Positions 1 to 62,688 of a stretch of 64,000 bases of DNA are shown here, one piece after another. Both the position numbers and the translations under genes were made by a program. Position 1 is the stretch's first letter. The number at the start of each line of letters is the position of its first letter. The notes under the pieces were generated by a model that was not told the DNA's origin, did no database searches, and saw only the letters and a list, made by a program, of their open reading frames with translations. Source of the DNA: Takakia lepidozioides (Eukaryota > Plantae > Bryophyta); NCBI GenBank assembly GCA_030704615.1, contig CM060733.1, forward strand, positions 5,394,001 to 5,458,000, written 5' to 3'.

Positions 1-2227
1 GCCCAACATCAGTGGCTAAGCTCCCAAGTCCAACAAGACCTCGCAGTGGCCGGTACTTCTTGCCTGCCGGTCCACTCAAAGAGAAAATGCCATCCTGGTT
101 GTCTAACAAGACAACTCCAGGTGTCACCATGGCGCGCTCAAAGGCTGGCCTAGCTGGCAGCTCCGTCAACCTGGCAGCTGCAGCTTGCCATGGCGCAGCC
201 GTGGCAGTCTTGACCCTCAAATCCGAGGATCCCTCTGCCACTACACCTCCACTAACTCCGCAGAAGATGAAGTGACCTCCCCACTCTCACAGAGTGTTGC
301 TGCTAGTCTGAACACTGCAGCTGGTCTTACCCCCGGCGTCGCAATCATGGTTGCCGAGAACAGTGGGGCTTGACACACAGAGGTGGCTGCCCCCAACAAC
401 ACACCGGCTGCACTAGCCTTGGCAGCAGGTGTCAGTGCTGCACGTGTAGCTCTCCCCAATGGCATAGTAACCTCCGCCTCGGTAACAGTCGGGCGAGAAC
501 TAGGTGCCATGGATGGCGTCGACACTGTCTCCGCCAAGTGAATGACTGAGGAAGCCTCGCCTGACGGCTTGCCTCCCCACGTTGTGGATCCAACTCCACC
601 TCTGCACCTCGTGGCTCAGGAACTCGTGCTGCTCCTCGAGTCACGGCTGCAGCAGACTCCACCTGCTCTAGTGGTAGTGCTGCTCCGCACATGAATCCCA
701 TGCCTCCCATATCTCCTCCCTCAGGAGCAGGAGGTGGACCATCCCGCCTGGGAGCCGGTACCGCCTGAGCTGTAGCCATGGCAGCGAGCCTCTGCTCTAG
801 CTGCTGAAGCCGGTTGGCCATGCCTTGGTCAACACCCTGACCTCCGCGTCCTTGGCCATGTTCTTGCCACCTCGTGCCCGACCACCTCGTCCTCTCTGGG
901 CTGGTCCACCTCGCCCCGGCCACCATTGTTCCCTTGGAACTGGCCTGGGCGCAACTCAGGATGCAAGTCATAACACTGGGCATCTCCATGCCCATACTTG
1001 CCACAATGCCCACACTGCAACTGTGCAGGCTGTGCTTGTGCCGGCCTTTTGCCACTCTCTGGGCAATCTCTCTTGACATGGGGTCCTCCACATGTCCAAC
1101 ATATCACCCCTGGTTGCTGTTGGCCTGCAAAAGATGCCACGGGCCTCTGCACCTGAGGTCCCCTGTAAGCTCCATGGAACTTGGGTTGGGAAACCTTGCC
1201 CCCCTGACCACGCTGTTGGGCAGTCCCTTGTGCCTGTGGGCTGGCAGCTGCGCCTCGTGCAGGCATGTCCTTGCCAAATCCAATGGTAACAACTCGCTCC
1301 TCCACCATGTTGAGCTCAATCCGCTCAGCCAGCAGAAACACATCTGCTAATGTGGGTTGGGCTGCTTGTAACAGGGTTGCATCCCGCACCCTTCTCCTGA
1401 GCTCCTTGTCCAAATTCCATACCAAACTGGATTGCCTGAGCTTCAGTAACCCCTTGGGTCACACTTATCAAGCGCCTCATACGAGTGTACGCCTCTCGCA
1501 GGCTCTCACTGGGTTTGCGCTGGAAGTCTTGCAAACTTCGCAGCTTCTCTGTCCGTACACCTTGGTAGTTCCTCCGCAACTCCTGGAAGAACTCCACCAC
1601 CGGGTTGAATCTAGGCACATGTGTTGTAGTCGTGGCAGGAGGAGTAGTAGCACCTTTTGAACTGGTACCACCTGCAGAAGTACCGGCACTACTTGTTCCA
1701 CTACTAGTGCTGGCAGTGGGAGATATTGGTACTGATGCAGCTACTGGTCGCGTCGTGCCTCGAGTAATGGAGACGTAGTCAGGTGACCAATACATCCTCC
1801 ACTCCTCAATCTCTGCTTCATGTCCTCGCCTGAACTCGTGGTAATCGTCCATAGGCGGGCCTTCCAAATGCTGGAACAGTCCCTTCCACGCCATGAATGG
1901 GTGAATAGCTGTGGATTGCGCATCTGCTGCAAATCACACCAGCTGTCGAACTCCTGGATAAAGTCATCCAACTCGATTGTGCCCACAGCTCCAGAGTACC
2001 TACGAGGCCCCTTGGTAGCTCCATACATCTCCTCCATGTCGTCCCACAACAATGGCGAATGAAACTGCACACCTGTTGATGAAGCCTCCGAAGTCTGTGT
2101 CTGACTCCACTAGTTGAGGGTGGAGGTGAAGGTGGTCTGAAACGAACACCTCGTCTGTGAACCCACTCTCACTGCTACTGCCTGTAGCCGTACTCCCCTC
2201 AAACCCTGGGTAACTCCGTGATGACAC
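1..2227 (-). mobile_element. Ty3/Gypsy retrotransposon copy A: frameshifted gag (two CCHC knuckles) to start of aspartic protease; continues off the left edge
   Basis: Overlapping minus ORFs 2000-2227, 1741-2070, 1325-1894 and 829-1425 give a gag-like chain with CWTCGGPHVKRDC and CGHCGKYGHGDAQC knuckles. Bases 1-826 are the reverse complement of 5859-~6685 and end in RPLR/VLLDLGA (protease). Confidence 0.85.
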
Positions 2228-3799
2228 TCACAATGTGCACCTCCCCACGTGACACTATAAGGCTCTAGTACTAATTCTAATAGTGACACGGGTGGGCACC
2301 TGTTGCAGTTTAAGGGTCATATCCCAGTGGCTCAGGGCACCTGCACCTGCATCCACCGCAAGAACTCCTATGGTTGGCTGGTCATCAACCCAGCCTCACC
2401 ATAGAAGAAACACTGGTGGTCTTGCTGGTCATCACTCCAGCCTCACCACCGACAGCATACTCTAGGATTGACCGGTGATCAAATCCGGCCTAATCCCTAT
2501 GAAAGCAAGCGCCCACACAAAACCAACATGGCGCACAGTCAAGCATGCAGGTGTTGGGGGGATCCAAACACAAGAAATCAAAACATCAACACCCCCACAC
2601 CAAAATCCAGCTGCAATGCTGATCCTGCAGAATATCCCAGCCCAAAACCCCGGACTGACTGGCCTCCACCAAGAGAGGCTTTGGCAACTACAAGTACAAG
2701 GTAATGAAAATAGTACAGAGATGGAGGGGAAGAATAGAAGCCCGACCAAGCAAGATCTAATCCTGATCTATGCTATCAACTGCCAGACTTCTCTCAAAGT
2801 GCCTCGCTCTGCATGATGGTAAGGTGTAGGAGGTATATCTATGTCCAGAAACCTGCCACTAACCTTGTCCCAAGCTACAGTAGCTCGCTCTAACCAACCC
2901 TCCTCCTCTTTCTGCCAGGTAGAGACAAAGCAATACTCCCTATCTCCCGCTCACTGAACACTAAAGAAAACAAAGGTAGGGTCTGATAGTCTCTCAACTC
3001 GAAAGCTTTGAGACGGTTGCGGGTGTCCTCATTGCGAATGACTGCATCTCCTTCAAACAGAACAAACTTGTCATTGCTAATGAACCCCCGCTCGTGGTTG
3101 CCTTGTGCAGAGCGTGTCCGGCTGCAACCTGTCTGATTGCACAAACTTGTGTAGCTCCTGCTCCTCTGCTCCAGTACACCACGGCCTTGTGGCTGAACAC
3201 CTTGGTCCCCGGGGCTGTCTTTGGCTGTGTTCCAAGCCTAGCTTTCACCCACTTTGGTATTTCACCTACAGCTGCAGAACTGCTGGCTCCAACAGAGTTC
3301 TGACTGTCCAAAGCAATATTGAGGCCCTCAACGCCAACTACAGCAGTTTGTTGTCTACTGCTAATGCCTGACTCCCAGTATGCAATCAACTCGTCCAACT
3401 GTTCTCCACTCAAATCAGTCTGAGTTCCTTGGGAAACATAAATCTTGTCCCCTTGTGTGCACAGGCTAAGAGAAGAGACCTGCCCTTCAATTACGTCCTC
3501 ATTTCCCCCAGCCATACAAGGAGGACATCCCAGATTTGTCTCTCATGTAGACCAGAACAGGTTCTAGAAACAGGATTGTGGATCTTTCATGGCACACTCA
3601 CACTCTAAAAATTCCATAGATTTTTAGCAGAGTCAGATAGGTAGATATCCCCTTTCTGCAGCTATCCCCCCAAAAACTGAGTCAAACGAGTCATTTGACA
3701 AAGATATGACCAATTAGGCTTAAATCATTTAAATTAGATCTTTTTTTTTTTTTTTTTTTAACACCCAAACGTTCTTGTCATTACAACCTGTTCCCAGGT

Positions 3800-5858
3800 T
3801 ATCTACGGGTTCCCGAGGCCGTTCCCCGACTATGCTGACTCCGGGAGCAACAGAGACGAAGGCTCTGCTCAGTTGAGCCCAATCGAAGGGACGAAGAAGT
3901 CAGCGACATGCATATCTCTGACGAGCAATACTTCGCTGACGACCAGGCACTCCAAACCAGACCAAATAGTGACCACCAACGATCGCCCCAGGAAATGCAA
4001 TCATACAAGACCGAGTTTTCTCCCCAGCAGACAAGCGGGTGTAGGTCAGCCGAGTCTTGTGGTAAGGTGAAGAGGATGCTCGGTGCATGAAGAGCTGGGT
4101 CCGATCAGCTGGCTAAGATTTGCGTTACAGATGAGATATAAACCTCTTGAGTAGCTTAGGATGGTGGAGTTGGGTCTGGCATTGACTCGTTATGATTCAT
4201 CTTTTGGCCATGGTTGGTCTCGATTTGACATGCGCAGTACATCTCCAGTATCATATTCTTGTCTTTTCGAGTCCTGGCAACCTCCCGGCTCAGCAGGTTC
4301 TTGCAAGTGCGTCAAAAGTTGGGTTTCCTCCAGTGCGTGTGCTCATTATCTTGCGCGGGTTGATGATGGGTCTCGTGCACCGGTCAAGCATTCCCTCCCT
4401 ATGCTTCATTCTTTCTCTTTTCGCAGGTTACAACTATATCTCCCTTTAATCCTCTCGCACGGTTGGGCAGAGAGTTGAGGCAGCTTCTTCTTCAAGAAAT
4501 GTTATCAATCACAATTTGGGTCGTTGGACAGAGTATCCGAGTTGGCTTGTACATCTTTGAAGCCTTCCTCCTCTTCACAGGCCGCTTCGAGTGCTCTCTG
4601 TTTGCAGCACCTTCTTCCTATCTCTGAATCTCTCCCTCAGTCTAAAGAAACAGGATGCCCACAAGTAACCTATCGCATGCGACTTCTGCTTAAAGCAAGA
4701 TGGGTTGCATTCCTCCTGTTTGCTGGTGTCGCGGCCACTTTCATGTGGAAGAGGGTTCCCCGTGCCCTGTCAAATCCTACCACCTTCTATCAAACCGACA
4801 CCGAAGTAGAAAGCAATCAAGTAGATTGGTTCCCACATTGCCATCCGCATATTTTGTGCATGGCGATTCGGGTGAGGCCAGACATTTCCTTGCTGAGCGA
4901 GGAAAAATAAGGGCGGAGAACTGCTCATGTCAAAAGGTCAAAGCCAAAGAGGTTGAAACATTGTGCGAAGGGGGACTGCAGCTGGATGCTCTGGAACCCA
5001 TCGCCAGCACTCTTTGCGAGGAGTCCATCCGTCACCATCCTCAAGAAGATCAACCTGGGCCACTCGAGAGTATTGAGAGTTCTTGAGGTAAATAGAACTA
5101 CCACACCTGGTAGCCAGGACATTGAAGCTACTATGATCGTTTAAAAAGTGGCTTGACACAAACCACGGCATTTCTGCTGCCCTCTCCCACTTCAGCGCAG
5201 CATTCAGCGTCCAGAGAGTGAAGTCCCTCTTTCCATAAAGGTAGACCTCCACGGTAAAGAGGATGAAATGCCCGCCACTTTCTATCAGCTTTCTGTCTTC
5301 GCATATGACTCCTATCCAAAGTGCAGGCCTGTCGTGCGGACCTCAATCCAGACCTCTTGGTTTTCAAACTCACGAGCAGAGACGACAACTAAATTGCGCG
5401 CACAGCCCATGGAAACAGCAGGGCCAGATGGACTCCCGCCCCAAGATATATATTATAATAATGCTAAAACAAACATATCTAGCTTAGCACCAGCACACTA
5501 GATAACGCTCATCTCTCTCGAGTGATAAGAAAGCTAAAGGACACACACTCTCAACACAAGAAACATGAAATCCATCGCATCACTCTTTTAAAATAGAAGT
5601 CGAGCCAGGGCACCCCAAGCTATGGGGACTCCACCCCACAACAACCTACACTCCCATCATAAGCACACTCAGTTCTAAACGATGAAGGAGCTCGGTCGCG
5701 CAGGCTCAACTCGAGAGAGATGAGCTGCGCGACTGCCGCTCTCGTGAAGATAGAAGGTGTCACGGTGGTGTCAACTAAACTTGACACCTGATTTAACACT
5801 TGACCTAAATCCAAGTGTTAAATATAAATAACTAGCTTTATTCTTATTTAACTTGACA
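3800..5858 (-). mobile_element. Fragment of a second repeat element with an LTR-like TG terminus (TGTCAAG at 5858)
   Basis: The reverse complement of ~5560-5858 aligns by eye with 10863-~11130 (tgtcaagtta...tatcttcacg...gctcatct.tct.gagttgagcct...tccccat.gc.tggggtgc). It abuts the gag of copy B exactly at 5858/5859. The internal part has no recognisable domain, so the left boundary is a guess. Confidence 0.45.
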
Positions 5859-6629
5859 AAGGCATGGCCAACCGGCTTCAGCAGCTAGAGCAGAGGCTTG
5901 CTGCCATGGCTACAGCTCAGGTGGTACCGGCTCTAAGGCCGGATGGTCCACCTCCTGCTCCTAAGGGAGGAGATATGGGAGGCATGGGATTCATGTGTGG
6001 AGCAGCACTACCACTAGTGCAGGTGGAGTCTGCTGCAGCCGTGACTCAAGGAGCAGCATGAGTTCCTGAGCCACGAGGTGCAGAGGTGGAGTTGGATCCA
6101 CAGCGTGGGAGGCAAGCCGTCAGGCTAGGCTTCCTCAGTCGTTCACATTGGCGGAGACAGTGTCGACGCCATCCATGGCACCTAGTTCTCGCCCGACTGT
6201 TACCGAGGCGGATGTTACTATGTCATTGAGGAGAGCTACACGGGTAGCACCACTACCTAGTATTGCCAAGGCTACGGCTAGTGTGCTACTAGGAGCGGCC
6301 ACATTTGTGTGTCAGGCTCCATTGTTCTCGGCTACCATGATTGCGACGCCGGGGGTAAGACCAGCTGAGGTGTTCAGGCTGGCAGCTACACTCTGTGAGA
6401 GTGGGGAAGTTACTTCATCTTCTGTGGAGATAGTGGGAGGTGTAGTGCTGGAGGGATCCTCGGATTTGAGGGTCAAGACTGCCACGGCGGCGCCATGGCA
6501 AGCTGCAGCTGCCAGGTTGATGGAGCTGCCAGCTAGGCCAACCATTGAGCGCGCCATGGTTACACCTGGAGTTGTCATGTTAGACAACCAGGATGGCATT
6601 TTCTGTTTGAGTGGACCGGCAGGCAAGAG

Positions 6630-6960
6630 GTACCGGCCACTGCGGGTCTTGTTGGACTCGGGAGCTCAGCCATTGATGCTGGGCAGAGCTGCTATTGCAG
6701 GCTTGGGCCTCACGAAGGCGGATATAGAGCCTTGTCTTTTCCAGATACAGACGTCTCTGGGAGGATCAAAGCAGGCTTGGGGCATGACACGGCTTGAGTT
6801 GGCTATCAGACTACGGCCGGATCACCTTATAGATGGCTCAGTGATGCGAGCCAAGGCCATTGTGACAGACGCAGTCTCATACGATGTCCTGGTTGGTGGG
6901 GCAGTGTTGTACCCCATGGGCTTCACCCTGGATTTTTGGGAGGAGTCAGCTTTCTATAGG
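6630..6960 (+). pseudogene. Retrotransposon aspartic protease
   Basis: RPLRVLLDSGAQPLMLG (D-S-G catalytic motif) and downstream YDVLVG (ILG-like motif). Confidence 0.85.
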
Positions 6961-7364
6961 CCTGCATGGCAGTCAGGGGAGGGCCGGCGGTGTGCAGCTC
7001 CCTGTGACGTTCATAGGAGGAGTTGCAGTTGCCCAGCGAGGCAAGATGCTGACACTAGCAACATTCACAGCGGCAGTGAGTTGGCCTAGAGAGTTGCTTG
7101 AGGGCAACGCTCATTCAGAGGATGTGCCACCTCCGGGAGAGCAGGATGACATGTATGGTATGACGGAGTTGCCTACCATGGTTGCTCAGACTCCATTGTG
7201 GGGCACGAGCAAGGATTTGCAGTGGGATGCTGATCGACGGGTGCAACAAGCCTGGGTGGAGGCTTTTGTACCGTCAGGAGAGGAGGAGAGTGCGGGGATT
7301 GCATCAGGACCACCTCAGTTGTCTCCATTGGACACCACACCTATTGTGTGGCAGTATCCGGATG

Positions 7365-8300
7365 AAGGCATTTGTCTTCTGGACTTGTTTGGCGGGATCA
7401 GCACCGGATTGGCTGCTGTGTTACAGGCAGGTGTACGAGTTCGGCGTTACCTGTATGTGGAGAGGGATGAGACTGCATGACTCGTTTCACTTCGCCATAT
7501 TGCTCAGTTGGTGCAGTGGTACCCTGAGTTGTTATCGGTGTCTGCAATTTGTGGATATCAGCAGGCCTTGCCAGCAGACATTTCGTTGCTAGGGGCGCAG
7601 GATTTGGAGCGGGTTGGGTCCATTGATCTGGTAGTGGCAGGTTGGCCCTGCCAAGGGCATTCATCCCGGGCATGGCAAAGGATTGCGACTCGAGGTCGGG
7701 TCTGTTTTGGGAGATGGTGCGGGTTTTGCGCCACTTGCAGCTTCATCAAGTTGTATCTCCAGCATACATCTTGGAGAATGTGCCACTGATGGGTGATTCT
7801 TGGGCCAGGGTGATGGCCAGTGTGCATCAAGTCCGGTCGTGGCTTGGGTCAGCAGTGTTGCTAGATGCAGCTACAGTGGGGTCACGGGCTCGTCCACGGC
7901 TATGGTGGACTAACTTGATGCCACCCGCAGTGCTCAAGCGTGCATTTGATGGGGTGCAGCGGCCAACACATCTCACAGTGGATAGCATTCTGGACACAGG
8001 GAGGCAGTCTCAGCGTATGAGACATGATGACCATTCGCCTTTGGCAGTGGTCAACAAGGTGGGTCAACCACGAGCAACATTACCTACACTGCTCAGCTTC
8101 CCAGGATCGCATGCTTTCCGGGATAGTGGACCTGGCCTCCTGTGGGATGCTCAGTTGCAGCAGTTAGTGGAGCCTAATGCTGACGAGTGTGAGCGGGCAA
8201 TGGGTTTTACCACTGGTACCACGGCATTGTCGTCTCTTTCTGAGGCATCACGTCGTCAAGTATTGGGGCAAGCAATGGATCTCAATTGCTTGACCTGGAT
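7365..8300 (+). pseudogene. Retrotransposon-encoded C5-cytosine DNA methyltransferase, DNMT3-like catalytic domain (disrupted)
   Basis: Motifs in canonical order: I LLDLFGGISTG, II YVE, IV DLVVAGWPCQGHS, SGLFWEMVRVL, VI ILENVP, VIII RARPRLWWTN, IX ERAMGF, X RRQVLGQAM. Stop at 7478-7480 and a frameshift near 7670. Confidence 0.9.
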
Positions 8301-9176
8301 TATCAGCTTGGCTATGGCTGAGCAACGCAGAGTGCGGAGTACACTTCCCTCGATGGTCTCTCTACCTACCGAGACGGTACAGGCAGTGAGTGGGGGCGAG
8401 CATGTGAGGACCACGGGGTGCATGCATCCATGGCACACGTGGGAGGTGCTCGAGGTTCAGAGGGAGTTGGCAGCCAAGGCGGCTGTGATGGATGAGGTTG
8501 GGGATTCTTCTCGGGTTGAGGAGGTCCTCAAGGATGAGATGATGGGGCAGGATGAGGCCTTGTCATTGACTGAGCAGGAAGGGAGTACTGCTCAAGAGGT
8601 TGCGGCATAGCAACCACGGGACGTGTCCTCTACCTCTAAGTCTGCTGGACTTAAGGTTGCAGTTACGAAGGGCAATTGGGAGCCTGACATTGGACCTATT
8701 GTCACTAGAGGAGAGAGACGACGTATACGGCGGTTCCTGAGGCTTACAGGAATTGCTTTGTCTCTCGTGCTACGGTGGATGAGCATGAGAGACATGTTCA
8801 GGTTGTGCATCGACCGGGTTTGGTCAATAGGGATGCGGATGGATTGAGTCACAATCCATGCACAAGCCAGCAGGATGACACTGGAGCTCGGTGGCATGGT
8901 GAGACGGACGAGGAGATGGTGCCGGGATGGCATGCATCTGCCTTTTTGTGTATCTTGGCATCGGGAGGTCAGGTTGGACCTACAATAGGGATGACTGTAG
9001 ACGGAGTGTCTGAGGACCCTGAGGCTAGTGATGAGCCAGGTGGTGCCAAAGATATATATGAGGATTTGGTTGTGTTGGACTACCTCCACATTGGAGACAC
9101 GGCAGCTAGTGTGACTGCCAAGGAAAGGGATCGGATCCTACAACGAGCCAAGAGGTTCAAGTGGTAGGGGATACAC

Positions 9177-10412
9177 ATGCTTCGAGTGTGGGAGGATGGT
9201 CGGGTGAGGATTGTGCCTCACCCCACACAGCGTGCACGGTTAGTGCGGCATGCCCATGAGGAGTTGGGGCATTTTGGAGTGCGACGCACTCACAGTTTAC
9301 TGCAGGGGCAGTATTGGTGGCGTGGTATGTATACAGAGGTGCAACAGTTCGTGGCTAGGTGCATGGTGTGTGATAGGGTGCGTGCTTCATTCAACGCCCC
9401 TACACCACAGTTGCATCCTTTACCAATAATGGGATTGGGCTACAGGTGGAGTCTTGACTTCGCAAGACCGTTGCCACTGACTATGCGCCACCACAGATAT
9501 GTGTTGGTGATGGTGAAGCACTTCTCCAAGTGGATTGAGTTGGTTCCATTGCCTGACAAGGCTAGTGTCTTGGGGGAGTTTCAGGCTTTGTGTGATACAG
9601 CCTTGATAGACCACCGCACCACTTCTCGGGATCATCCTGAGGCTGATGGCTTGGCAGAGAGAGTTGTTCAGACGGTGAAGAAGGGTTTGCGCAAGTATGG
9701 CTTGCAGAAGGGACACCTAGGAGATTGGGATCTTCAGGTTCCTTGGTTAGCCATGAGCTACAGGTTCAACAAACAAGCATCACTTGCCTCCTTCTCATCA
9801 TATTTCCTTCTCTTTGGCCGAGAGCCGGATTTGCCTATAGTCATTCGTAGGGACACTGCTCAAGTCCTTAACCTTGACGATCCGGACGTGTGGGTACGTG
9901 CATGTGATCAGCGTGCAGAATTGTTCAAGAAAGTCATGCCCATGGCTTTTGAGAACCTTGCCATTGCACAGCACCGTGATACGTTGAGGTATGTCACTAT
10001 ATGTGGTGGAGGATATCGTCCTGGGGTTCGGAGGTTTAGCCCTGGTGACTATGTTTATTTGCAGCAGACTGCTCCTACGACTCTGGATGTTACTGCAGGG
10101 CGTGTTATTCTGAGGGTTCAAGAGGTGTTGCCCTCAGGAGTCCTGATCTTGGAGGGTCGGGATGGCATGACTTGGAAAGACCATGTGCGTAATTGTGCGT
10201 CATGTCACCTTCCCAATGTCGATGGCAGAGTTGACCCAAACTTGGCAGTGGTACCTGCAGGTTTGAGGTGCATACTCTGTGGGTCTGCCAAAGGGGCAGC
10301 CATCATGATGGTGTGTGATCGATGCTCAAGGGGTTGGAATATGGGATGCTTGACACCACCTCTTGAGAAGGTTCCTGACGGAGATTGGTTGTGTCCACAC
10401 TACTTGGGATAG
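9177..10412 (+). pseudogene. Gypsy integrase with C-terminal PHD finger (internal deletion in catalytic core)
   Basis: 411-aa ORF with an HHCC zinc finger and rve core. C-terminus is CILCGSAKGAAIMMVCDRCSRGWNMGCLTPPLEKVPDGDWLCPHY (PHD spacing, with H->N and last C->Y). Confidence 0.88.
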
Positions 10413-10672
10413 TGGCAGTGGACATGACTGGAGGCAGCTAACAAGACATGGGAGGCCAAGCTCATATGAGTCAATACATGAGATCCCAAGCTCAAGTTCA
10501 CAGGTTGCAAGACGGTGACTAACGATGGGGCAACTCTTGCACCCGGCCTCTTGATCTATTGAGTTTGAGTGTAGTAGGGATAGTGGTGGAGAACTTAGTG
10601 AGGCTATGGTCACTATCACATCTTGTGGCTACCTGGACTTAGAGGGACCTAAGCACCAGCTAGGGGGGCGAT

Positions 10673-11351
10673 TGTGTGGACTAGTGACTGCCAGAGTGGG
10701 CAGCATAGTGGCAGCCTAGTGACTGACTAGTTGTAGTCTAGTGGTTGGACTAGTGGCTGGACTAGTGGTGAACTAGTGATATACTAGTGTGTGGCGTGCA
10801 CATGTGTTGTGTGGTTTTGGACAGCGATGTAGTTGTGTAGCGATATGTATGCGCATGACAGCTGTCAAGTTATTTTACCACTAGTGTGAAACTAGCTAAG
10901 AAATAGCTAGCTTTTACATATTGACATTTGGGATTGGCCCCAAGTGTCAACCCAGGGGTCAAGGCAGATTCAGGCCCTGGAGTGGTTATCTTCACGGCAA
11001 GCGCGGGAGGCTCATCTTTCTTGAGTTGAGCCTCACCGCGCCTAGCTATGGCGCCGTAGTGTGGATTCCCCATGGCGTGGGGTGCACTTGGCTTGACTTG
11101 TATTTGAGTGATGAGGTTATATATGCATGAATTTATGCTTCAGATTTGTGTGCTCGTGCTTGTATTTTTTTTCGTTGTGTGGACTAGTGACTGCCATAGT
11201 GGGCAGCATAGTGGCAGCCTAGTGACTGACTAGTTGTAGCCTAGTGGTTGGACTAGTGGTGAACTAGTGATATACTAGTGTGTGGCATGCAAATGTGTTG
11301 TGTGGTTTTGGACAGCGGTGTAGTTGTGTAGCGATATGTATGTGCACGACA
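10673..11351 (+). repeat. Two direct copies of the LTR-start unit (10673-10860, 11176-11351) separated by a 315-bp segment
   Basis: Both copies start TGTGTGGACTAGTGACTGCC and end ...GCA(T/C)GACA. Rich in ACTAGT repeats. Confidence 0.85.
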
Positions 11352-16815: not shown

Positions 16816-17299
16816 GTAACGCCCTGTGCATTACAAATCTTGCGTAATGTACACCTACGATATTTCTTTATCTTTATCTCCAAATTAATCTTTTACAGGT
16901 TCACCATTTCTTTTTATCATCTTTGGCAGAGTTTGCCGTTTACAGGAGAGCAGCAATGTGCCGCAACAAATCAATGTAACAATGTGCTGCCAAAAATATC
17001 TATACAATGTAGTTGCAATATGCAGTTTCCGTAAAACTTGAATTCACAGAAATTGAATCAATCCTGCGTCGCATGTGCTTTGTTCGCGAGTGCAGCTCGA
17101 AGTAAAGTACCCGTTTCAACAACATCAGCACTGAGATTAAGAGTGATAATATTGCAATTCTGCATATTATTGAAGTTTTGGCATGTCTACACACAAGAAG
17201 ACAACGTAGGGAAGCGGCTTGACATACTTGGTGACATAGCAGAATTCTGTCAAATAAGATCTTGCTCAGCCTGCACGAATATTTCATCTGACATATCGT

Positions 17300-18700
17300 A
17301 GTAGTTCTCCTCGTCCCCTTGTGAGCAACTTGCACTATGGCATTATGAATATTTGCAAAATGACGAACAACTCCTAGAGAACTGTTTAATGATGTGTCGC
17401 CAAGAATCTGCCGAGTTTGTGTAAGGACCGGCTGACCATCTTGCTGGATCAATGCGTACTTACGAGACTCATCCTCAAGAGCCTCCACAAATGTCAAGGG
17501 CTTTCCATCCAATTTCTCCCCAGATATTATCCTCTGTGTAGCCCTATAATGTAGCATTTTGTCAATCCGAGAATATTTCTCGTAGCTTTCTTCATCTCGG
17601 TGACCAGTAAGTCGCATTGCAATCCTTGAAGGAACAAATCCCTCATGTATGCGAGTGATCCTTGTAGACCTATCAAACTTGTTCGTAAGATCTTTGTTCT
17701 CCAAGCCACGAATTCCTGCCGTCATCTTCTTAGTCATACCACTCAAGCTATTGCGGCCAACAGGACCTTTTGAAAAACCATATAGGATTCACTTTCCACT
17801 TTGTCAAAGGAGTCAAGAAAAGTGGATGAGGCCCAGCCTCATCAACACCAAATACAGGTCACCGAGCAATCAATAGTTCAAAAGTTTTTATAACATCGGC
17901 CATTGGACAGTGAACAGGCTTCCGAAGATTTTGTGACCCGCACCGTGTCACATCCACCTTCGTGGTCTTAGAAATTCCAGGTGTATAATAGAGCACCCTT
18001 TAATCTCAAAATCTTGCACCAGTGTTGCACGCATTCAGCAGCAGCTCTTATAAAAAGGTTGTGCGCACAGTACCACACGAACCTGAAGTTTAAGCCGCGG
18101 CTCAACGTATCGCATTGGCACATCGGCTGAGCAAGCACCAATTCCTCTTCGTCCAAAGTGTCAGAGTTCTTTAATATCTTTACCAAGACCAGCAGCAAAA
18201 GACCGCATCACAACTTCATCTCCCGCAACTTTGGCCCTCTGGTAACGAACATCCGTAAAAATATTAAACTTCTTCTACGGCTTGCTAGATTGAATGCACC
18301 TCAAATTACACCTGGCACAGATTAATCTTCCGAGACCTCGCATTAATGATTGTAAAGTTTGAGACGGGTACATAGTGTCGTCCACTTTGTTAACCTTAAG
18401 GATGAACATAGATATCATGTCAACAAATTCATGTAGATCCTTTTTTTCAGACATGTCTTCGACCGAAATGCTTGTATTGTGCCTCTTCTCAGAGCGGCAG
18501 TCATCAAAAGTCTTACGAGCCCATTCATCAACAACTCGACTCCTATGACGACTACCTGCATCGATTGTCCGTTTTTCGTGATCTGATATCGTCCGGTGTC
18601 TTCGATTAACAAGTTCCAAACACTCCTTGGTATTTTCTTCCGAGGAAGAATCACTTCCCAAACCTTCAAATCCTGGACATTCCTAGGGGAGAACAAAATC
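17300..18700 (-). pseudogene. Crypton/DUF3504 (KCTD1/ZMYM-type) tyrosine recombinase, degenerate
   Basis: N-terminal WARKTFDDCR...ISMFILKVNKVDDTMYPSQTLQSLMRGLGR; middle NLFIRAAAE (catalytic R region); C-terminal LTNKFDRSTRITR...IAMRLTGHRDEESYEKY (degenerate H-x-x-R, TGH, Y). Several frameshifts. Confidence 0.72.
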
Positions 18701-20780: not shown

Positions 20781-21287
20781 CCCATCAATATATGAAACGA
20801 GGTTGTTTGTTTGTTTTGTTTTGTAGCTTCTTACACATCTGAAAAGGTACGTTTGACAAGATACCAATAAGCTAAAGATATATAACCCCTTACATACGAA
20901 GATGGATATCATTATTTCAATATTTTATGTCATTTCCTTTCATATTCATCCAATATTGTTCTCATTCATCTACAAAGAAACATACCTCCTAGACGTCGTG
21001 GTGGTGTTAGTTTACGCACAGAACGTGCACGAGCATGACAACGTGCTACTAGATTAAGAGATGTGGAAACCAATGAGGAGAGGGAGGAAAGGCTCCGTGC
21101 TCAGGCCGCTTATCAGGCATCCCATGTAGCAACTGTTAGGGCCGCAAAATCCTCTGCTCAAGCGGAAAAACAGTTGCTAGCTCAGGTTGTTTATCAAGCA
21201 CTCCATGTAGCAGCTGTTAGGGCCGCAAAGTCCTCCGCTCAAGCGGAAGAACGGCTGATAGCTCAGGCCGCCTATCAAGCACCCCAT

Positions 21288-21640
21288 GCAAGCTCTTCAC
21301 AATTATAGTCAAGTTGTTCTGCAATGAGTGGATTTGGACAGTGTACTATCCACTCCAAAATGGATTGCGGCATACCTAGTGTGGCGGACAATAAAGTGTT
21401 GTGATGTTCCCTCAAAGATTCGTCAATGAGAAATAATCCGTAATCGTATACTTCATGCTCAGTGGGGTCGTCAAGATGGTGCTGTACTTGCAGCCGGTGT
21501 TGTAAATCATTGCATAGATGATGACGAAATTGTTCCTACAGTTGTCTAGGTTTGTTAGGAGTGCAAAACCTAAGTAATGTCACAAACAAATGTCGTTATT
21601 GTGATCATGTACGGAAAAGTGAAGCTTTTTCCAGGGTTGC
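21288..21640 (-). pseudogene. Helitron Rep-helicase linker segment
   Basis: Manual translation: RHLFVTLLRFCTPNKPRQL*EQFRHHLCNDLQHRL...EVYDYGLFLIDESL...MPQ...NPLIAEQLDYNCEEL. Confidence 0.8.
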
Positions 21641-22853
21641 TTCAAGATGCAAACAGGTGGTACCTGCTTGTGGAGCTACAGCCTTTGTGGCAGCTATGTT
21701 CTATGATACCAGAAGACAGCTATCATCCATGGTCGCCAAGGATTACTCTCTGCGGTCTTACCTCCATAGGTTGAAGGGGAGTAGGGAAATTTTTCTAGCA
21801 AAATATAGTAAGTCAGAGGTCATTTGATGGAGCAAATTGTAATGGTTAGTGGTAACTATGACCTTTTGCATCTCTGCATATCTCAATTATTCCATATGTG
21901 GTGTAAGGTTGTATGCATTCTTTCAAGTACGTAAATTCTCAATTCCTTGTAAGTTTTATACAAGGGTTCACCAATTCAAGTATGTGCATCATATCTTGCA
22001 GAAGGAGAATCATGTTCTTCTTTGCACTATCAAGATTTATATATAGATAAGTCTCCTCAAAGCCCGTCCTGATACTCCACCACTAGGCCAGTGCACCAAC
22101 TGGAAAGAGGAAGGGCACTTGGTCTGTCACCCATCCGTCCCTACAAAATGCCTGTGCTGAGCCTCATAATCCATGTTACTCCCTCCCCTAAATCATCTTT
22201 CATTCTTCCTTCAGATCGATAGTAACATTGAACTATTTTTCCTCGCTTTGATTCCCTTGGGGCCTCCAGTGCATGTTTATATTTCTTCAGCCACTTCTCA
22301 ATAGAGTGGTGCAGAGGGAGCACAGGAGGGTCAGTGAAAGTGAATGTTTTATATATGGTTCTTTGAACCCAACAATGAGTGCTGCAAGGATAGCACATAT
22401 GATACAGTGACATTGCAATGTCGCAGGAGAAGATATTTGCCCATAGAAAGACTGCATTGTCAAAATGCAACTGATAATATTCCACTGCATCATCACATGA
22501 TGGTCTGGCTATTATCAACCCTCTACATGACTTCTACAACTTAATGAATTGCCCTAGCTTTGTCTGGGATCGAGCCATAACCAGGATCATCAAGGTCCCT
22601 AACAATTTGGTTGGGGGAATGTACGGTCAGGTCAACATGGAATCCCTAATCCCAACAGGGCCTCAGCACAAAAGCCAAGATAAATACCATGACACCCTTG
22701 AGCCTCTCACTGCATTTCATTTGAGAGGAAGTTGATTCCAAATTGGACGTGATGCCACCAAACCACAACCATGTGCATCAACCCCGCCTCCCACAGGTAT
22801 GCCTCAAACCCAGGAACATGTGTCCCAGTTGGCTAAATGCCTGATATATCCTC

Positions 22854-23665
22854 TCATTCTCTTTTGGGAAGTTGCTGACAAATACAGTCAGGAGCTGGAT
22901 ATCTGAAAATAGAATACTTCTGCATCCGGGGCATAGGTGCACCCAGTCGACTCTTGTATGCAGTCACAACCCTCGAGGAGAACTCTTTCCAACTGATTGA
23001 GTTGTTGGCAAAGACGTTGGCCAGAAGGGCTTTGTCAGGATGGATTGACTTTCGGGGTCCAAAAAAGGTCCGTTGTCCACTCTGCATATGACACAGGGGT
23101 CAAGTCAGGAATAACCTTATTGTACAACTTCAATACAAACTTTGTGGATCAATAGGACTAACCCAGACATCAGTGAACCAGTGTCATTCATTGCAACTGA
23201 ATCATATACGAAAGGCAAAGATGTGCTGCATGGCAAAACTTGGCAACGCTCTGAGGCTAGTTTCCCCCCCTCTGGCTACGAAAAGGAAAGGGAGAAGTGT
23301 ACTCATTGAACCTCTGGTATGAACTTTGACATTGGCTCGGAGGCCATAGTGCCGAAAACCTTCTTGACCTGGGCATGGAGGTTTACCCACAAGGGCGTGA
23401 TCTTCAACCCTATCTTCTCAATAGACCTATAGCACAAACTCAATGGCAACCCAGCTACATGATTCATTGAGTGATGGGAGAAATCTACCAGAACATTGGG
23501 AAAGTTGCCTGCAGCATTGGACATAAAGACATCACTGTTGAGCAAGACAATAAAGTCCAGGGCCGCAAGTTTGTGTGCATGAGGCAAAAAATGCCCAAGT
23601 TCCTTCTTGAAAGCCAAAGTATACTTGCTCTCCAGAAATGGAAACATTTCTTTCAATGGCTTGAT
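22854..23665 (-). pseudogene. Captured C-terminal two exons of a plant O-fucosyltransferase (DUF246/OFUT) gene
   Basis: IKPLKEMFPFLESKYTLA...LAALDFIVLLNSDVFMSNAAGNFPNVL|gt (23489), then cag|SGQRTFFGPRKSIHPD...PDCIC (23081-22854). Phase-0 intron retained. Confidence 0.8.
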
Positions 23666-23924
23666 GCGTTGTTGTTGTTGATTGTATCGGTGCTTCTTGC
23701 TCATGGTCTTGCTCCTCTTGATCGTCTTTGTCTATTAGTTCATCTTGTTCTGGAATTGGTGGCAGAAATTCCTCGTGAATGTCTGTCACCAACTTCGCCA
23801 ATTGACATTTCATTTGTCTTACCATTGCCCTGTTGAGTTTCTTCATTTCCAGTTCACTCCTTTCATTCAACCAGAAGGCTGCGTCTGCTGCGTCCAGCCC
23901 TGCTTGTAGTGTCAGCTTCTCCAG

Positions 23925-25640
23925 AATCCACTCTCTATCATCTTCCAGCAATCCCCTTACAAAACGTGCTTCTTTAAATGTATCGTAAACATGACCACAC
24001 ACTATTCGGAGGTGTTCAAATGAGACAGGTCCTCGAACTACCGTAAGAAGTAACCGGAGGTAATAACGTTCTCCCGCAGTTGGATCAGCAAAGTACAGCC
24101 TTCCTAATGCGAATCCAAGTACTCTAGGTCTCCACTCTTTCGTAGCAGCCTTCCAAATATAGTGTTGTGAGAATTCAAGATATGTGTACATTGCCTAGCA
24201 TTTGGATCTATTGCACATCTAGCAAAAAACGCAGTTAACGTTGTTGTTTCGCGCTCTGCTCTTTGAAGGACCATTTGAACATCTTCATTTTCATGGAATA
24301 CCACTCTGTGCATCCCCGGCAAGTGGAGAGCAAGACGTACCACATTTGGCTGCTCCTCATGCATCTCCATCGTAAATAAACGCCATGCCGCCCCAGGTGC
24401 ACTGACATATCGAGCATCAAGGTTTTGCTCAACCTCATTTGGTTCTCGACCAATGCATAGTAGTTCGGTCATGTTCTTTGTAAATATATTTATGAATATA
24501 TTTTACAACGAGTATGGAAGCACATACCTCTATGTTGATCTGACACTCGTATTTCCTAGATAGGAATGGATTATAGGGCACCACATCCCGATTGTCCACC
24601 AAATGTCCTCGTGTTTCATAGTCGTGACCAATATTATGTCTCCTTCGATATAATGGATATCCATCAGGATCCATGGAGGTCTCTTCTTGGAAGGCCTTTG
24701 GATAGCGTTTTGAACACTTGACATCTTTCATGCATGGAGTTGGAGGTTCCGTGGTCCACATGGGCCATGTACCATTGTCTTCAAGATTGTGTTAAAAAGA
24801 ACAGGATCAAGTTCAAGATCCGGAAACTCTGCACAAACAATTCGATCCACTCTTGCTACATCCACCACTTTGTGTTCTGCTGCAAAGAATATAAGAAAAT
24901 GCTTGTGTGACAATCCACATTTTTGAAACTCGTCCAAGTACATTGATCTTCAAAATATCTCGAAGTAGTGCCATGGACTTTTGCTTGAAAACACGGGCAA
25001 CCAGATCATGTCGATGTACTGCATTCTGTTCTGGTAGTATTGCAGCTTTGCATCGCCAAATCCAAATTATCATTGCCCGTACTCGTTCTTCATGCAAAGT
25101 TTCATAAGCTTGTTTAATAAGCGGAACAAAAGGATTGTATTCAAGCAGAAGTTGTTGTAGTGTCAACATTGTATCTAGTCGAACTTCTGGATTTACTCGC
25201 ATCCGAGCTTCTATGGCTTCGTTTGGGTCATATATATATAATTGCGCAAATACAGGTTGTACATCGGGCTCAGGTAATAGAACTCCACACATGTGGGTCA
25301 ATCTACCATGGACACGAAAACAGTAGGGTCCAGGCCCCAATGTGCGATCCCGATTGAACCCCACTGAAGTAAAAGCAAATGCATTATTGTAACGTCGTAT
25401 ATTATCACGAAATTCCCTAGCCACCACATCATCACCATCGAACAACTGTTGTAATATAGGTGGTGGGGGTCGCGGTAATGAAACTTTACCTTTATGACAA
25501 CATGTGCTGAATAATGGATTTGGAATACTGCCCTCAGTAAGTTTTTTGGCCATCCAATGAAGAGCACCACAATGTCGATAGACAACATTCATATTGCCCA
25601 AGTTATGGCGCAACCCTGTTTCAAAGAACGGCGCCATTTG
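23925..25640 (-). pseudogene. Helitron Rep (HUH endonuclease) region
   Basis: HCGALHW...CCHKGKV; FRDNIRRYNNAFAFTS; FAQLYIYD; EFQKCGLSHKHFLI (HUH); MVHGPCG; VVPYNP; KYIHKYIYK (Y2); ERYYLRLLL...RGLLEDDREW. Confidence 0.95.
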
Positions 25641-26386
25641 TGTAGCTTGGTAGACAGCCTGATCACGTAATCTTTGTGCTCGTTGTTCTTCCAACTTTGC
25701 GGCCCTAGCAGCTGCTACATGGGGTGCTTGATAAGCAGCTTGTGCTTGCAGCCTTTCTTCAGTTTGAGGCCCTAACAGTTGCGACATGGGGTGCTTGATA
25801 TGCAGCTTGGGCTCGCAATCTTTCTTCCGTTTCAGCAGATGACTCTGTGGACCTAACAGCTGCTACATAGGGTATTTGATATGCAGCTTGTGCTCGCAAT
25901 CTTTATTCTATTTCAGCAGATGACTCTACAGCTAATAGCTGCTACATGGGCTGCTTGATAATTCGTCTGCAATCGTAGCTTTTTCTCCGTTTGAATGGAT
26001 GACTCAGCGCCCCTAAGAGCTGCTACATGGGTTGCTTGATAAGTAGCCTGAGCTACCAACCTTTCTTCCGTTTGAGCAGATGACTCTACGGCCCTACCAG
26101 CTGCTACATGGGGTGCTTGATAATCAGCCAAGGCTAGCAACATTTCTTTCGCTTGAGCGGAGGACTCTGTGGCCCTAATAGCTGCTTGATAAGCGGCCTG
26201 AGCTGTCAACCTTTCTTCCGTTTGAGCGGAGGACTCTACGGCCCTAACAGCTGCTACATGGGGTGCTTGATAAGCAGCCTGAGCTAACAACCTTTCTTCC
26301 GTTTGAGCGGAGGACTGTGCGGCCCTAATAACTGCTTGATAAGCGGCCTGAGCTGTCAGCCTTTCTTCCGTTTGAGCGGAGGACTC
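25640..26386 (-). repeat. Coding tandem repeats (ESSAQTEERLxAQAAYQAPHVAAVRA) of the Helitron ORF N-terminus
   Basis: ~63-78-bp units in frame with Rep. The same repeats occur on the plus strand at 21063-21288. Confidence 0.85.
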
Positions 26387-26438
26387 GAAGAACGTGTACC
26401 CCAACTTAATGCTGAACAATTTATTGCTTATCACCAAG

Positions 26439-27255
26439 CACTACAGGAAAAAGGGGGGGGGGGGGGGTTTCGATGTCGCGGCCACGCCGCAACCACGTCA
26501 CGGCGTCGTAAAACAGCCCTTTTCGGGCAGGGGGAAGAACCAAATTTGCGACGCCCGGGCGTCGCAAGCCCGTTCCAAGGGCGTCGCTAAAAAAACGTTG
26601 CAAATTTGCGATCAATGAGGGTCGCAAATAGGCGAAACTGCGATTTGCGACGTTCGGGCGTTAGAAAAGAAAAAAAGAAAAACCTACTATGTAATGCAGA
26701 ATTAGCACCGTCCGGGGGTCGCAAAGTGCGACGCCCGGACGTCACAATTTAAGGGGGTACATTTGAATTTAGGCGGAAAATTTTGAATTTGAAATTTGAA
26801 TTTGAAAAACTTGTTGACCATTGACTCCGGTTCTGTCTAATGGTGATATGTTCATTGTTCTACATATATCATGCAATGCATACTTGAACCTAAGACCTCC
26901 ACGTTATAACATTTCTAAGACACTACAAACTAACCAACACACCTACGCTACATCTATGTATCACAAAAGCAATCTAAATATATAGATATACATATAAAGA
27001 TTTCCTTCAAGTTCCTTCAAGTTCCTTCTAAGGGGGTCTCTCTTGTGACGCTGGGGAGTTGCAACCTCCATACCCTTAGTGCCCAGCCCCAGCCCCAGCC
27101 CCAGCCCCAACCCCAACCCCAGTGTCGTCGCCGTTGTTGCACCCCCCCCCCCCCCCCCCCACCACTAGGCTCCCCAAGCGACGTCCTTGCGATGACCTAA
27201 GAATCTTTGGAAAATCGGCAGTTCGCGAGTTGGCTGCTACAAGTTGGAAGTGGAA
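26439..27255 (+). mobile_element. CACTA (En/Spm) transposon left end nested in the Helitron helicase
   Basis: CACTACAGGAAAAA at 26439 followed by subterminal tgcgacg/cgtcgca repeats in both orientations, including a perfect 22-bp palindrome at 26546-26567. No right TIR seen, so the right boundary is approximate. Confidence 0.7.
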
Positions 27256-27817
27256 CCATGTTGTCGACAGTATCAACAATGATATAATTCACATGTTCCA
27301 AGGAGCTCTTCGAACATTTCATGGTGCAGATTCAACACTTCTAGAGGCAGGTGCTGACAATCATAATCTATATCCTATAGAATATCTCAATTCTTCAGAG
27401 TTGCCAGGATTGCCACCTTTGAAGCTCAATCTTAAAGTTGGATGTCCAATCATGTTGCTGCGTAATATAGCTCCCAAACGTGGGTTTGTAATTGAGGCAC
27501 GCTTTTTAACTCGTACATGTTCTGGAGAAACAACATTCATCCCCATAATCACATTGCAACCTACTACATCAGAGATACCTTTTAAATTCACTCGAAGACA
27601 ATTTCCTGTGAAGGTGGCTCTTGCTATGACAATCAACAAATCATAGGGACAATCCGTAAAACATGTAGGTCTAGATCTTCTAACACCTGTATTCTCTCAT
27701 GGTCAATTGTATGTGGCATTCTCTCGGACCACATCAGCAAATTCGTTGACAGTCCTTCTCCCCGATCAAAATGTACCAAAAACAATGAATATTGTATATA
27801 CAGAAGTATTAATATAA
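27256..27817 (+). pseudogene. Helitron PIF1-family helicase C-terminal part
   Basis: YPIEYLNS...GLPPLKLNLKVGCPIMLLRN...RRQFPVKVALAMTINKS*GQS...[13 protein letters not shown]...NIVYTEVL*. Confidence 0.95.
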
Positions 27818-61059: not shown

Positions 61060-62070
61060 TGTACTCATAAGACGTTGTTTGCCGTAGCCTTGTGGCCATT
61101 GACCCCGCGCCCAGTTTGAGCGGGAACAAAAGGGACAGAACCTACCTCTGTCAGGGGCTGACGTTGGTAGTAAGACTTACCTTCATATATAGAATTAATC
61201 CGGGTTTTCCAGATATCCTCTAGAAATCCCTTCACACAAGCATCAATCTGCTGTGTGTGATTTGCCCAAAAACTAGGCCTCAGGAGGGCCTGGGCTTTTG
61301 GCTCAGCCTCGAGACTTTCAAAGTTGGTAAACAGGGGTACAGGCACAATTCCCTTGATAGATTCGAAGAGAGCGTCTCTTTGGTGAGAGAACCCCGGACA
61401 GTGTATCAGAAAATGAATACTGTCTTCAGATTGCCCACACAACGGGCAATTGCACTCTCCCTTTCCTCTCTGCTTCTGTTTGCTGTTCAAAGGTAGGCTT
61501 CCTGCCCTGAGTTTAAATTTCAGTCTAGTGCCGAGAGTGGGTAGACCCTTGAGGTCATCCAAGATGTCCTCCCCCATGTCACAGACTGGAAACAAGTTCA
61601 GGGAAGTTTTCTGCCTAACTTCATTTTCATCAGACAATCTCATGGCAACAGACATGGCTGAGGACACTACAGCCTCTAAGTCAGATTTATCCAGCAGGGT
61701 CAAGACTTGCGGATCCAGGTCCAGGTCCTTGAGGATCTCTTCTACTCTCTTCTGCCAGGACTTCGCCTGTTTGACAGGGCGGTCCTGTTTCCAAGATATA
61801 GAGTCGATTAACTTAGGATATCTGGTGTTGGGCATATGTTGCAGCTGACCCCACCATCTGACCTTGAATTCATCTCGTCGGGAGCTTAAGGACAGAATGC
61901 CAAACTCACCCCGAACAGCCACATTGGCTGTTTTGGAGCATGCTGACATACACTCCTTAAGCACCCCCACTTGAATGGATTCTAGAGACTTAGCCTGGTT
62001 GGAGTTATCAACCCATATAGCAGATCCGTACTCCAAGGCAGGTCTAATAACGCGACAAAGCATGGTTTTC
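61060..62070 (-). mobile_element. 5'-truncated non-LTR retrotransposon (LINE; RT thumb + CCHC zinc finger)
   Basis: [12 protein letters not shown]...VAVRGEFG...LRAGSLPL...[18 protein letters not shown]. Open for ~330 codons. Confidence 0.9.
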
Positions 62071-62126
62071 TTAACCTCAGAGGTGACCCCACAGAAGACA
62101 CATAAGAGAGAGGGACAGAGACAGAC

Positions 62127-62294
62127 CTCTAATGGTGTCAACGGGCATTTCCCATTCATCCTAATAGCTCCAGGGTTGATCATACGACCAGTTTTGCTGA
62201 ACTTGCCCCTCCATGCACTCTCCCGCGCACCATCCAATTCAAGTTTCTCTTCCTTGCCACCCTCGTATACACAACATGAAAAGGCTACCATATC
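62127..62294 (-). pseudogene. Isolated internal exon of an O-fucosyltransferase (DUF246) gene
   Basis: cag|[13 protein letters not shown]...[29 protein letters not shown]|gt. No neighbouring OFUT exons seen. Confidence 0.85.
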
Positions 62295-62688
62295 CTGCTA
62301 CCATGGCCAATATTTAAGGGACTTCCTATTAAAATCTGACAAAAGTGACCTTCACCATGTGATGGTAATTTACCATTACCACAATGCCGAGTAAACTTTT
62401 AACGCTTTTGAACCTACTATAGATAGCATCACTTCTAGCCTCTCATACAGTAAATGGGAACTCTTTAATGGGCCACTTTAAATGCAACTAAGGCCTATTC
62501 TGCCCTGGTAAAATTCCTATTGCTCCTCCTTTGCATACAAAGTGCATGTCAGGCACATACCCGGCCTCCTTCATCCATCCAGAGAATCTCTGCAGCTCAG
62601 CATATGATTCTCTAATCTGTGGATGTGATTTGTCTGCTACAATTCATCCATCCAGTTTCCAACCTCAATGCAGCTGTATCCTTCCTCC

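Follow-up and report, generated by a model that had tools for sequence, protein, structure and literature searches.

A DNMT3-like methyltransferase upstream of a conserved stop codon in a Gypsy retrotransposon family of land plants

A stretch of 64,000 nucleotides from the bryophyte Takakia lepidozioides (assembly GCA_030704615.1, contig CM060733.1, positions 5,394,001 to 5,458,000; below, the window) contains a dead retrotransposon copy, E1, which lacks reverse transcriptase (RT) and comes from an abundant family of Ty3/Gypsy order. Alignment of the family members shows the domain order Gag, protease, cytosine methyltransferase (methylase), stop codon, RT, RNase H, integrase, and PHD finger. 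Since the conserved stop codon follows the methylase, the first open reading frame (ORF1) consists of Gag, protease, and methylase. According to the reading we favour, E1 is an RT-deleted copy of a high-copy land-plant Gypsy element whose ORF1 ends in a DNMT3-like methylase, with low-rate readthrough of the stop, packaging of the methylase at Gag level, and methylation of the cDNA. We assign a probability of about 0.6 to this reading as a whole.

A conserved stop codon ends the methylase frame

The methylase frame of E1, which like the whole element lies on the plus strand, ends at the TAG at 8608–8610. The TAG is followed by CAA CCA (8608–8616 together) and fits all six positions of the CAR YYA motif. 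Readthrough of the tobacco mosaic virus type (TMV-type, type I) in plants needs UAG-CAR-YYA (PMC2754532). Of the 148 stops on the plus strand of the coding region, no other is followed by CARYYA. The region was also followed in sister contigs, i.e., contigs from sequencing runs of the same organism (run X5 is from another study and run X1 is possibly the source sample). Positions 8606–8617 are invariant in these contigs, with no variant at 4% or above in four of four runs, and neighbouring sites vary.

Related loci were the best 80 of 153 stretches from a metagenome scan. In 31 loci methylase and RT are in the same frame and not more than 700 nt apart; 30 of these 31 have a stop (TAG or TAA) plus CAA at codon 80, and the second most frequent stop site of the set occurs in 8. 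With the frame ignored, a stop followed by CAR is present in the matching stretch of 58 of the 74 loci with enough sequence. A diverged group of loci has TAA CAA TTA or TAA CAA TCA preceded by different residues, and three lineages with unlike upstream residues (QEVAA, PKVFA, FPHFA) all retain the CAA right 3′ of the stop. Gene models of Calypogeia and Marchantia (e.g., P0001, P0056, P0005, and P0007), judged by their protein ends only, terminate 96–100 residues after motif X. As the loci largely belong to one family, the independent evidence for the stop comprises the three DNA lineages and the liverwort protein ends.

A previous reading of the window from its sequence alone (the sequence-only reading) had placed the methylase inside pol and expected a single open frame from protease through methylase, RT, RNase H, and integrase to the PHD finger. 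Both points have to be revised, as the in-frame stop parts the methylase from the RT frame in the window as well as in the 30 same-frame loci, and the methylase ends ORF1.

Judging from the sequence context, RT, RNase H, integrase, and PHD finger are probably produced by readthrough of this stop. The site resembles TMV-type readthrough sites in the complete match of the window (TAG CAA CCA) and in the TAA CAA TTA of the diverged group; in contrast to them it is situated after protease and methylase and not between gag and pol, and CAA CCC is the context in the main metagenome family. Downstream of the stop, the pre-RT linker (8617–8760) is homologous between the window and its relatives (WEP.IGP..T.GERR), and the 43 codons that follow the stop in the window contain no in-frame ATG. 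A candidate 3′ stem–loop, weak by its scores (see below), pairs 8624–8640 with 8704–8720; it is present in the window and likewise in the main related family (5250–5330 in locus L002). In the Marchantia and Riccia gene models P0003, P0008, P0010, and P0074 methylase and RT are joined and different stretches near the stop are skipped; these are likely false introns.

The methylase resembles DNMT3

The methylase (7340–8340) lies 3′ of the protease and 5′ of the pre-RT linker. As had been seen before, the main C5 methyltransferase motifs follow each other in canonical order (I, IV, VI, VIII, IX, X) on the strand of the element: FGG at 7388–7396, PCQ at 7646–7654, ENV at 7774–7782, RPRLWW at 7891–7908, ERAMGF at 8191–8208, and LGQAMD at 8263–8280. 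The frame of E1 contains a stop at 7478–7480, is broken between 7663 and 7687, and has lost one codon near 7889. The domain is collinear with its relatives and has no introns.

The Pfam check with PF00145 that had been suggested for the domain succeeded with two unbroken relatives (32 and 37 bits, cut-off 22), but the broken pieces of the window itself stay below the cut-off (E 0.065 on one piece, no match for the X-read N-half). Searches with the open C-half yielded 48 longer homologs out of 2761 candidates (the best at E 3e-93 and 73% identity) and 238 matching proteins of similar length among 550 candidates (120 listed). PF00145 is present in 40 of the 48 longer homologs. The named matches are from Calypogeia fissa (73%), Marchantia polymorpha, M. 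paleacea, Riccia sorocarpa, and three Sphagnum species.

For the open relative L001 the sequence match is best to DNMT3A (E 7e-10), followed by DRM (1.5e-3) and M.HhaI (0.04). A 27-sequence methylase profile gave the same order: DNMT3A (E 6e-20), DRM (2e-10), HhaI (3e-6), and DNMT2 (2e-3). The Foldseek matches listed for an AlphaFold model of the methylase (predicted local distance difference test score 81) are DNMT3 chains only. Fold comparison (VIA) placed DNMT3A first (Z 23.7, root-mean-square deviation 3.0, 264 residues aligned), with DNMT3B tied (Z 23.2) and M.MpeI as next family (Z 20.7); the structural identity to DNMT3A is only about 20–25%. DUF3444 was absent in Pfam scans of 20 relatives, and PWWP and ADD were lacking as well. 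Going by sequence and predicted fold, the domain is a non-permuted, intronless C5 methyltransferase with DNMT3A/B as closest solved relatives, in line with the former preference for DNMT3 over the permuted DRM. The label "DNMT3-like" refers to sequence and fold matches and motif order, because the trees described below hold retroelement domains only.

The methylase is a fixed part of the family

Summed contig depth, which is not equal to copy number, amounts in run X1 to 0.80–1.12 million for the methylase, 0.88 million for the protease, and 1.0–1.16 million for the integrase; on the flank at 3871–5031 it is only 389–626. Run X5 gave the same pattern. Protease or Gag lies upstream of the methylase in 43 of the 55 related loci with room upstream, and RT, RNase H, or integrase lies downstream in 59 of the 69 with room downstream.

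The ratio of nonsynonymous to synonymous change (dN/dS) between the window and related loci is 0.08–0.14 for the N-half of the methylase (five loci), 0.10–0.13 for the integrase, and 0.13–0.16 for the protease, all rough values because synonymous sites are near saturation. For the C-half the proportions of nonsynonymous and synonymous differences against seven loci are 0.18–0.22 and 0.76–0.79, the latter saturated. The methylase frame is free of stops in only 3 of the 68 loci having both halves, and one of these three lacks PCQ; most copies are therefore dead.

By these sequence comparisons the methylase is a fixed part of the repeat family under purifying selection (dN/dS about 0.1). The sequence-only reading had named three observations that would speak against a methylase belonging to the element, namely its absence from other copies, host introns, and a lack of selection. 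None was found: the domain occurs in other copies at the depth of protease and integrase and at the same position, its match to relatives is collinear and intronless, and it bears the mark of purifying selection.

Organization and decay of E1

Alignments and the high depth in the sister contigs place E1 at 5859–11351. The element had been given as 5859–10860; it is real but runs on to 11351, and 10860 is only the end of its first B repeat. Gag is missing except for a broken C-terminal tail, and 5859 is the point of truncation. Tail and linker (5859–6519, found by tblastn with Marchantia P0003/P0005) are followed by an aspartic protease (6520–6960; PF13650, E 0.034) with the motif LLDSGA and the catalytic D at 6655–6657, and 3′ of the protease the frame is broken near 6989–7000.

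Beyond methylase and linker, a deletion has removed RT and the greater part of RNase H. Its joint, near 8767–8797, is followed by the tail of RNase H (8761–8900 for both), and sister contigs have loose ends at 8767 and 8797. The integrase (9168–10268) comprises an H2C2 zinc finger (PF17921, E 2e-17) and a DDE core (PF00665, E 0.03) that is short by 28 residues near 9567. A decayed PHD finger (10269–10400; PF00628, E 1e-6) forms the C-terminus. The description of E1 as a decayed Gypsy retrotransposon thus stands; the domains are those of Gypsy order, the losses include gag, RT, most of RNase H, part of the integrase, and an intact methylase frame, and the land-plant host is supported.

A diverged A repeat of a related element occupies 5519–5858 on the minus strand, in opposite orientation to E1 (alignment score 217 versus 109 ± 8 in 200 shuffles). 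Its TGTCA end adjoins the truncation point, and from this arrangement E1 was likely cut at 5859 by a nested insertion carrying the diverged repeat. A second copy beside or inside the first in opposite orientation was also seen in the related loci L057, L067, L070, L072, and L078, several of which may represent one insertion. The window itself holds a second copy of the family, E2 (1–2037, minus strand), with gag including zinc knuckles (PF03732, E 6e-4), linker, and the start of the protease before it runs off the window; over 837 columns it shares 91% identity with E1. Upstream of the E2 gag, a stretch of high depth (2994–3542, minus strand) contains a 182-codon frame (ORF 2997–3539) with neither a Pfam match nor an ESM Atlas match of at least 0.8. 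Between the diverged A repeat and the E2 leader there is a low-depth stretch (3871–5357), which is covered by near-identical pieces of longer contigs from run X12, possibly an RNA run.

Split terminal repeats, target duplications, and the PHD finger

The 3′ end of E1 is built from repeats in the order B-A-B. A polypurine-tract-like AGGGGGG (10662–10668), with a G run at the same place in related loci, lies just 5′ of repeat B1 (10672–10860), which ends in CA and is 90% identical to B2. A 2-nt spacer (GC, 10861–10862) forms an internal CA-GC-TG junction with repeat A2 (10863–11174), which begins with TGTCA, and B2 (11175–11351), ending in CA, is the 3′ terminus. X12 contigs begin at 10863 with dissimilar upstream letters. 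In full-length relatives A is also the 5′ end.

These relatives (L052 and L053/L058) measure about 9.2 kb and have the layout A-coding-B-A-B. They are flanked by 4-bp target duplications, TCTC for L052 and CATA for L053/L058, i.e., in two of two independent full-length insertions; L053 and L058 were counted as one because their flanks are shared. The termini are TG...CA, with the TA at the beginning of L052 being a decayed end. The internal junction CA-NN-TG with its 2-nt spacer is found in L012, L013, L050, L052, L053, and L058 and has decayed to TA in two of them; the spacer length was taken from self-repeat rows only, and a separate junction count used a fixed 2-nt spacer pattern. Two whole identical long terminal repeats (LTRs) are not present in the relatives, where the 5′ end is A alone and the 3′ end B-A-B. 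A tRNA primer-binding site was sought in four loci with a short list of ten motifs, none of which matched.

Gag-protease-RT-RNase H-integrase order, a DDE integrase, TG...CA termini, and 4-bp target duplications identify the family as Ty3/Gypsy. Judged from the sequences, its DDE integrase operates with DIRS-like repeats. DIRS, PAT, and Ngaro elements themselves were rejected on account of the DDE integrase domains and the target duplications, since these groups have a tyrosine recombinase and no target duplication. Troyka, which came into question because of the three-repeat end, was likewise rejected, as the available part of its description gives CG...CG termini, 3-bp target duplications, and animal hosts only (PMC12440569).

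The best matches of the PHD finger include PHF21A, KDM5 PHD1, CHD4, and ATXR5. We take these PHD fingers to be readers of unmodified H3K4.

Relatives in the wider green lineage

With E 1e-30 as the limit, a methylase profile retrieved 543 representatives. Among the best 150 of these, 143 were new: the methylase stands after RT/RNase H or directly before the integrase in 87, after gag/protease or before RT in 8, and by itself in 48. The named relatives among 30 proteins are Scenedesmus (P0344) and Cymbomonas (P0387), both with the methylase before the integrase, Closterium (three proteins), and Klebsormidium nitens. In many of the proteins P0292–P0431, the named ones of which are from chlorophytes, a DNMT3-like domain lies between RNase H and integrase and is mostly followed by a PHD finger; P0299 carries in addition a Tudor domain and P0350 a G-patch.

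Quick trees with midpoint roots were calculated for methylase and integrase (the out-of-frame row L062 was ignored in one methylase tree). They are broadly congruent, and each parts the chlorophyte-type from the streptophyte-type layout (support 85–89; integrase 97). Because the roots are midpoints, the direction of change between the layouts was left unset. The window groups with Marchantia, Calypogeia, Riccia, and Sphagnum (support 98, and 94 in a smaller set). In Closterium and several further relatives the methylase reads into RT without a stop. No vascular-plant names occur among the named methylase matches, which is not evidence of absence as most matches are nameless and gene sets are often repeat-masked.

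A more far-reaching scenario can be offered as a tentative one only. One ancient DNMT3-carrying, PHD-tipped Gypsy lineage may span chlorophytes to bryophytes; in land plants the methylase would have left Pol for the Gag-protease end upstream of a leaky stop, by which its dose would rise many-fold and it would be loaded into the particle and pre-methylate the cDNA. As the split repeats preserve the internal CA-NN-TG junction, the DDE integrase may use a circle junction and not linear LTR ends. IS3-type transposases act on a circle junction and provide an analogy.

Comparison with known systems

The literature, here and below, was available in part, and statements on it refer to the available text. 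The kind of element is known from KnitGypsy-Dnmt3 of Klebsormidium nitens, described as an acquisition by K. nitens with Dnmt3 inside the Pol ORF and DIRS-like repeats (PMC5890265, de Mendoza et al. 2018). Both share the Gypsy domain set, a non-permuted intronless Dnmt3-type domain, purifying selection, and A-coding-B-A-B repeats. The family of the window differs in its land-plant host, the conserved stop after the methylase, and the integrase with a terminal PHD finger; the term "PHD" occurs 0 times in the available text of PMC5890265. The C-half of the window is 38% identical (E 3e-33) to the K. nitens protein GAQ93235.1, which we infer to be a KnitGypsy copy. The single K. nitens row groups with Closterium (support 91), apart from the stop-bearing clade. 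Because of the in-frame stop between methylase and RT we regard the window family as a sister variant and not as a member of KnitGypsy-Dnmt3.

SymbioDIRS-Dnmt3 likewise carries a Dnmt3 domain and A-coding-B-A-B repeats and methylates CG de novo in yeast (PMC5890265), but has a tyrosine recombinase in place of the DDE integrase and 4-bp target duplications found here. Host DNMT3 of plants (PpDNMT3a/b; Yaari et al. 2019, PMC6453930) and DNMT3A/B of animals agree with the window family in motif order, and DNMT3A/B are the best sequence and fold matches. Unlike them, the window family is without DUF3444, the C-terminal companion of host plant DNMT3 (PMC6453930), without PWWP, ADD, and introns, and is fused to Gag-protease. 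Gypsy-7a_cRei of Chlamydomonas is a further green-lineage Gypsy element with a PHD finger and shows an intergenic insertion bias; no methylase is reported for it, and the description speaks of left and right LTRs (10.1101/2022.06.16.496473). The EpiLTRs of Cymbomonas and Euglena are LTR elements with a cytosine DNMT as well, but they contain a DNMT4-sister enzyme, DAM, and a chromodomain and are stated to be distinct from "streptophytes (Gypsy-DNMT3)" (bioRxiv 10.64898/2026.05.21.726589).

The sequence-only reading named no characterized embryophyte family, and none was found in the literature searched, though an earlier bryophyte note is possible in subscription journals or Repbase Reports. 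According to an opinion article of 2019, land plants such as tracheophytes do not have retrotransposon methylases (PMC6338049). In PMC12344493 and 10.64898/2026.05.21.726589 the range is given only as "streptophytes", and supplementary trees might include bryophyte copies. The window family is not mentioned in the available text of PMC6453930, 10.1101/363937, PMC6317226, PMC12885004, 10.1101/2021.02.12.428880, PMC9516144, 10.1101/2023.01.30.526367, PMC11982613, and 10.1101/2022.06.16.496473. We regard as new the land-plant range, the conserved leaky-type stop with the methylase on its Gag side, the target duplications combined with split repeats, and the chlorophyte relatives with the module elsewhere.

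Proposed mechanism and alternatives

We propose that ORF1 would be translated into Gag-protease-methylase and that readthrough of a few percent would add RT, RNase H, integrase, and PHD finger as a rare long polyprotein. As the methylase is situated on the Gag side of the probably leaky stop, active relatives would produce it in large excess over the copying enzyme. The element protease would free many methylase copies inside the particle, and these would mark the new cDNA or the fresh insertion, so that a new copy arrives pre-marked. From the sequence, an activity of the methylase on cDNA or on a fresh insertion seems somewhat favoured. The PHD finger is similar to readers of unmodified H3 tails and could steer the integrase away from active promoters, and the internal CA-NN-TG junction could template the integration ends.

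Several observations weigh against this reading. Concerning the stop, the CAA CCC of the main metagenome family fits only five of the six motif positions, TAA replaces TAG in 10 of 45 distinct sequences of this family, an in-frame ATG three codons past the stop in 44 of the 45 also fits re-initiation, and the 3′ stem–loop is weak (z −0.4 to −2.5, little true covariation). Concerning family and enzyme, most of the 80 loci belong to a single family with repeated insertions and are hence non-independent, synonymous sites are near saturation, most copies are dead, and the methylase trees are without rows for host DNMT3 or DRM. In yeast, no methylation was seen with the KnitGypsy methylase, an outcome that the authors of the study regard as inconclusive (PMC5890265). 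CpG is depleted in the element (0.50), but not beyond the level of host genes (0.37–0.46), and the depletion is for this reason not a sign of self-methylation. The transitions between E1 and E2 (12 in CG, 15 in CHG, and 16 in CHH context in 799 columns) and the CpG/CHG depletion fit ordinary host silencing.

The ATG just mentioned leads to an unlikely alternative in which the element and the Gag-level dose of the methylase are the same, and RT, RNase H, integrase, and PHD finger are expressed by re-initiation, internal initiation, or splicing. The four Marchantia and Riccia gene models that bridge methylase and RT would agree with this, and two-ORF layouts with Gag-protease first are known in plants (PMC6317226). 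Yet in the family of the window the 43 codons past the stop are free of in-frame ATGs, three lineages retain the CAA despite their differing upstream residues, and the stretches skipped differ among the gene models, as prediction artefacts would.

A further alternative concerns the role of the methylase. The enzyme could act mainly in trans or without catalysis, by methylating older copies or host chromatin (self-limiting silencing), coating cDNA, or competing with host DNMT3. A Gag-level dose far above the need of one cDNA, the oligomerization of DNMT3 enzymes in known structures, and the host-benefit model raised by de Mendoza et al. together with the missing KnitGypsy activity in yeast (PMC5890265) are consistent with such a role. 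We nevertheless think it rather improbable, because PCQ, ENV, and RxR are kept in liverwort, moss, Closterium, Klebsormidium, and chlorophyte relatives, and the chlorophyte domain sits between RNase H and integrase, where the cDNA is. That a host DNMT3 fragment was captured once by E1, or lies by chance within E1 alone, would suit the sub-threshold Pfam scores of the window's own pieces. This explanation can practically be dismissed; it is refuted by the family-level depth, the same position in related loci, and purifying selection, and the absence of introns and of DUF3444 (PMC6453930) and the broadly congruent methylase and integrase trees also argue against it.

Other features of the window

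A frame without Pfam match lies at 17000–17788 (minus strand); by eye it resembles a Crypton-type tyrosine recombinase. Helitron fragments (PF14214, PF21530) and 81-nt tandem coding repeats in both orientations are found at 21078–27646. An intron-rich ataxin-2-like gene (LsmAD, E 1e-17) occupies 42400–52210, a LINE-like C-terminal remnant recognized by eye 61065–62297, and a PLS-E class pentatricopeptide repeat gene 62689–64000, all on the minus strand; the best matches of the last are from Diphasiastrum, Ginkgo, and Sphagnum at about 45–59%. A tree put this gene loosely beside Sphagnum and Diphasiastrum rows (support 89), and taken by itself it points to a land plant outside the angiosperms, probably a seedless one; the ataxin-2-like gene is the better marker of the host.

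Significance

Methylase-bearing retrotransposons have been described from algae and protists. The present family is abundant in bryophyte genomes and occurs in Marchantia as unnamed gene models, e.g., Mp4g09160 and Mp8g17980. Annotation pipelines cut or mis-splice these genes because of the conserved stop, and such genes could be miscounted as host DNMT3s. The combination of split repeats, DDE integrase, and target duplications is an unexplained replication design, an earlier mention of which was found only in a figure legend (PMC5890265). The conserved stop predicts the dose of the methylase, which would go with Gag and not with RT. Marchantia is a genetic model for which methylomes exist as well as mutants of met1, dnmt3, and cmt; as the family is present there, the question why a transposon keeps a silencing enzyme becomes testable in a land plant.

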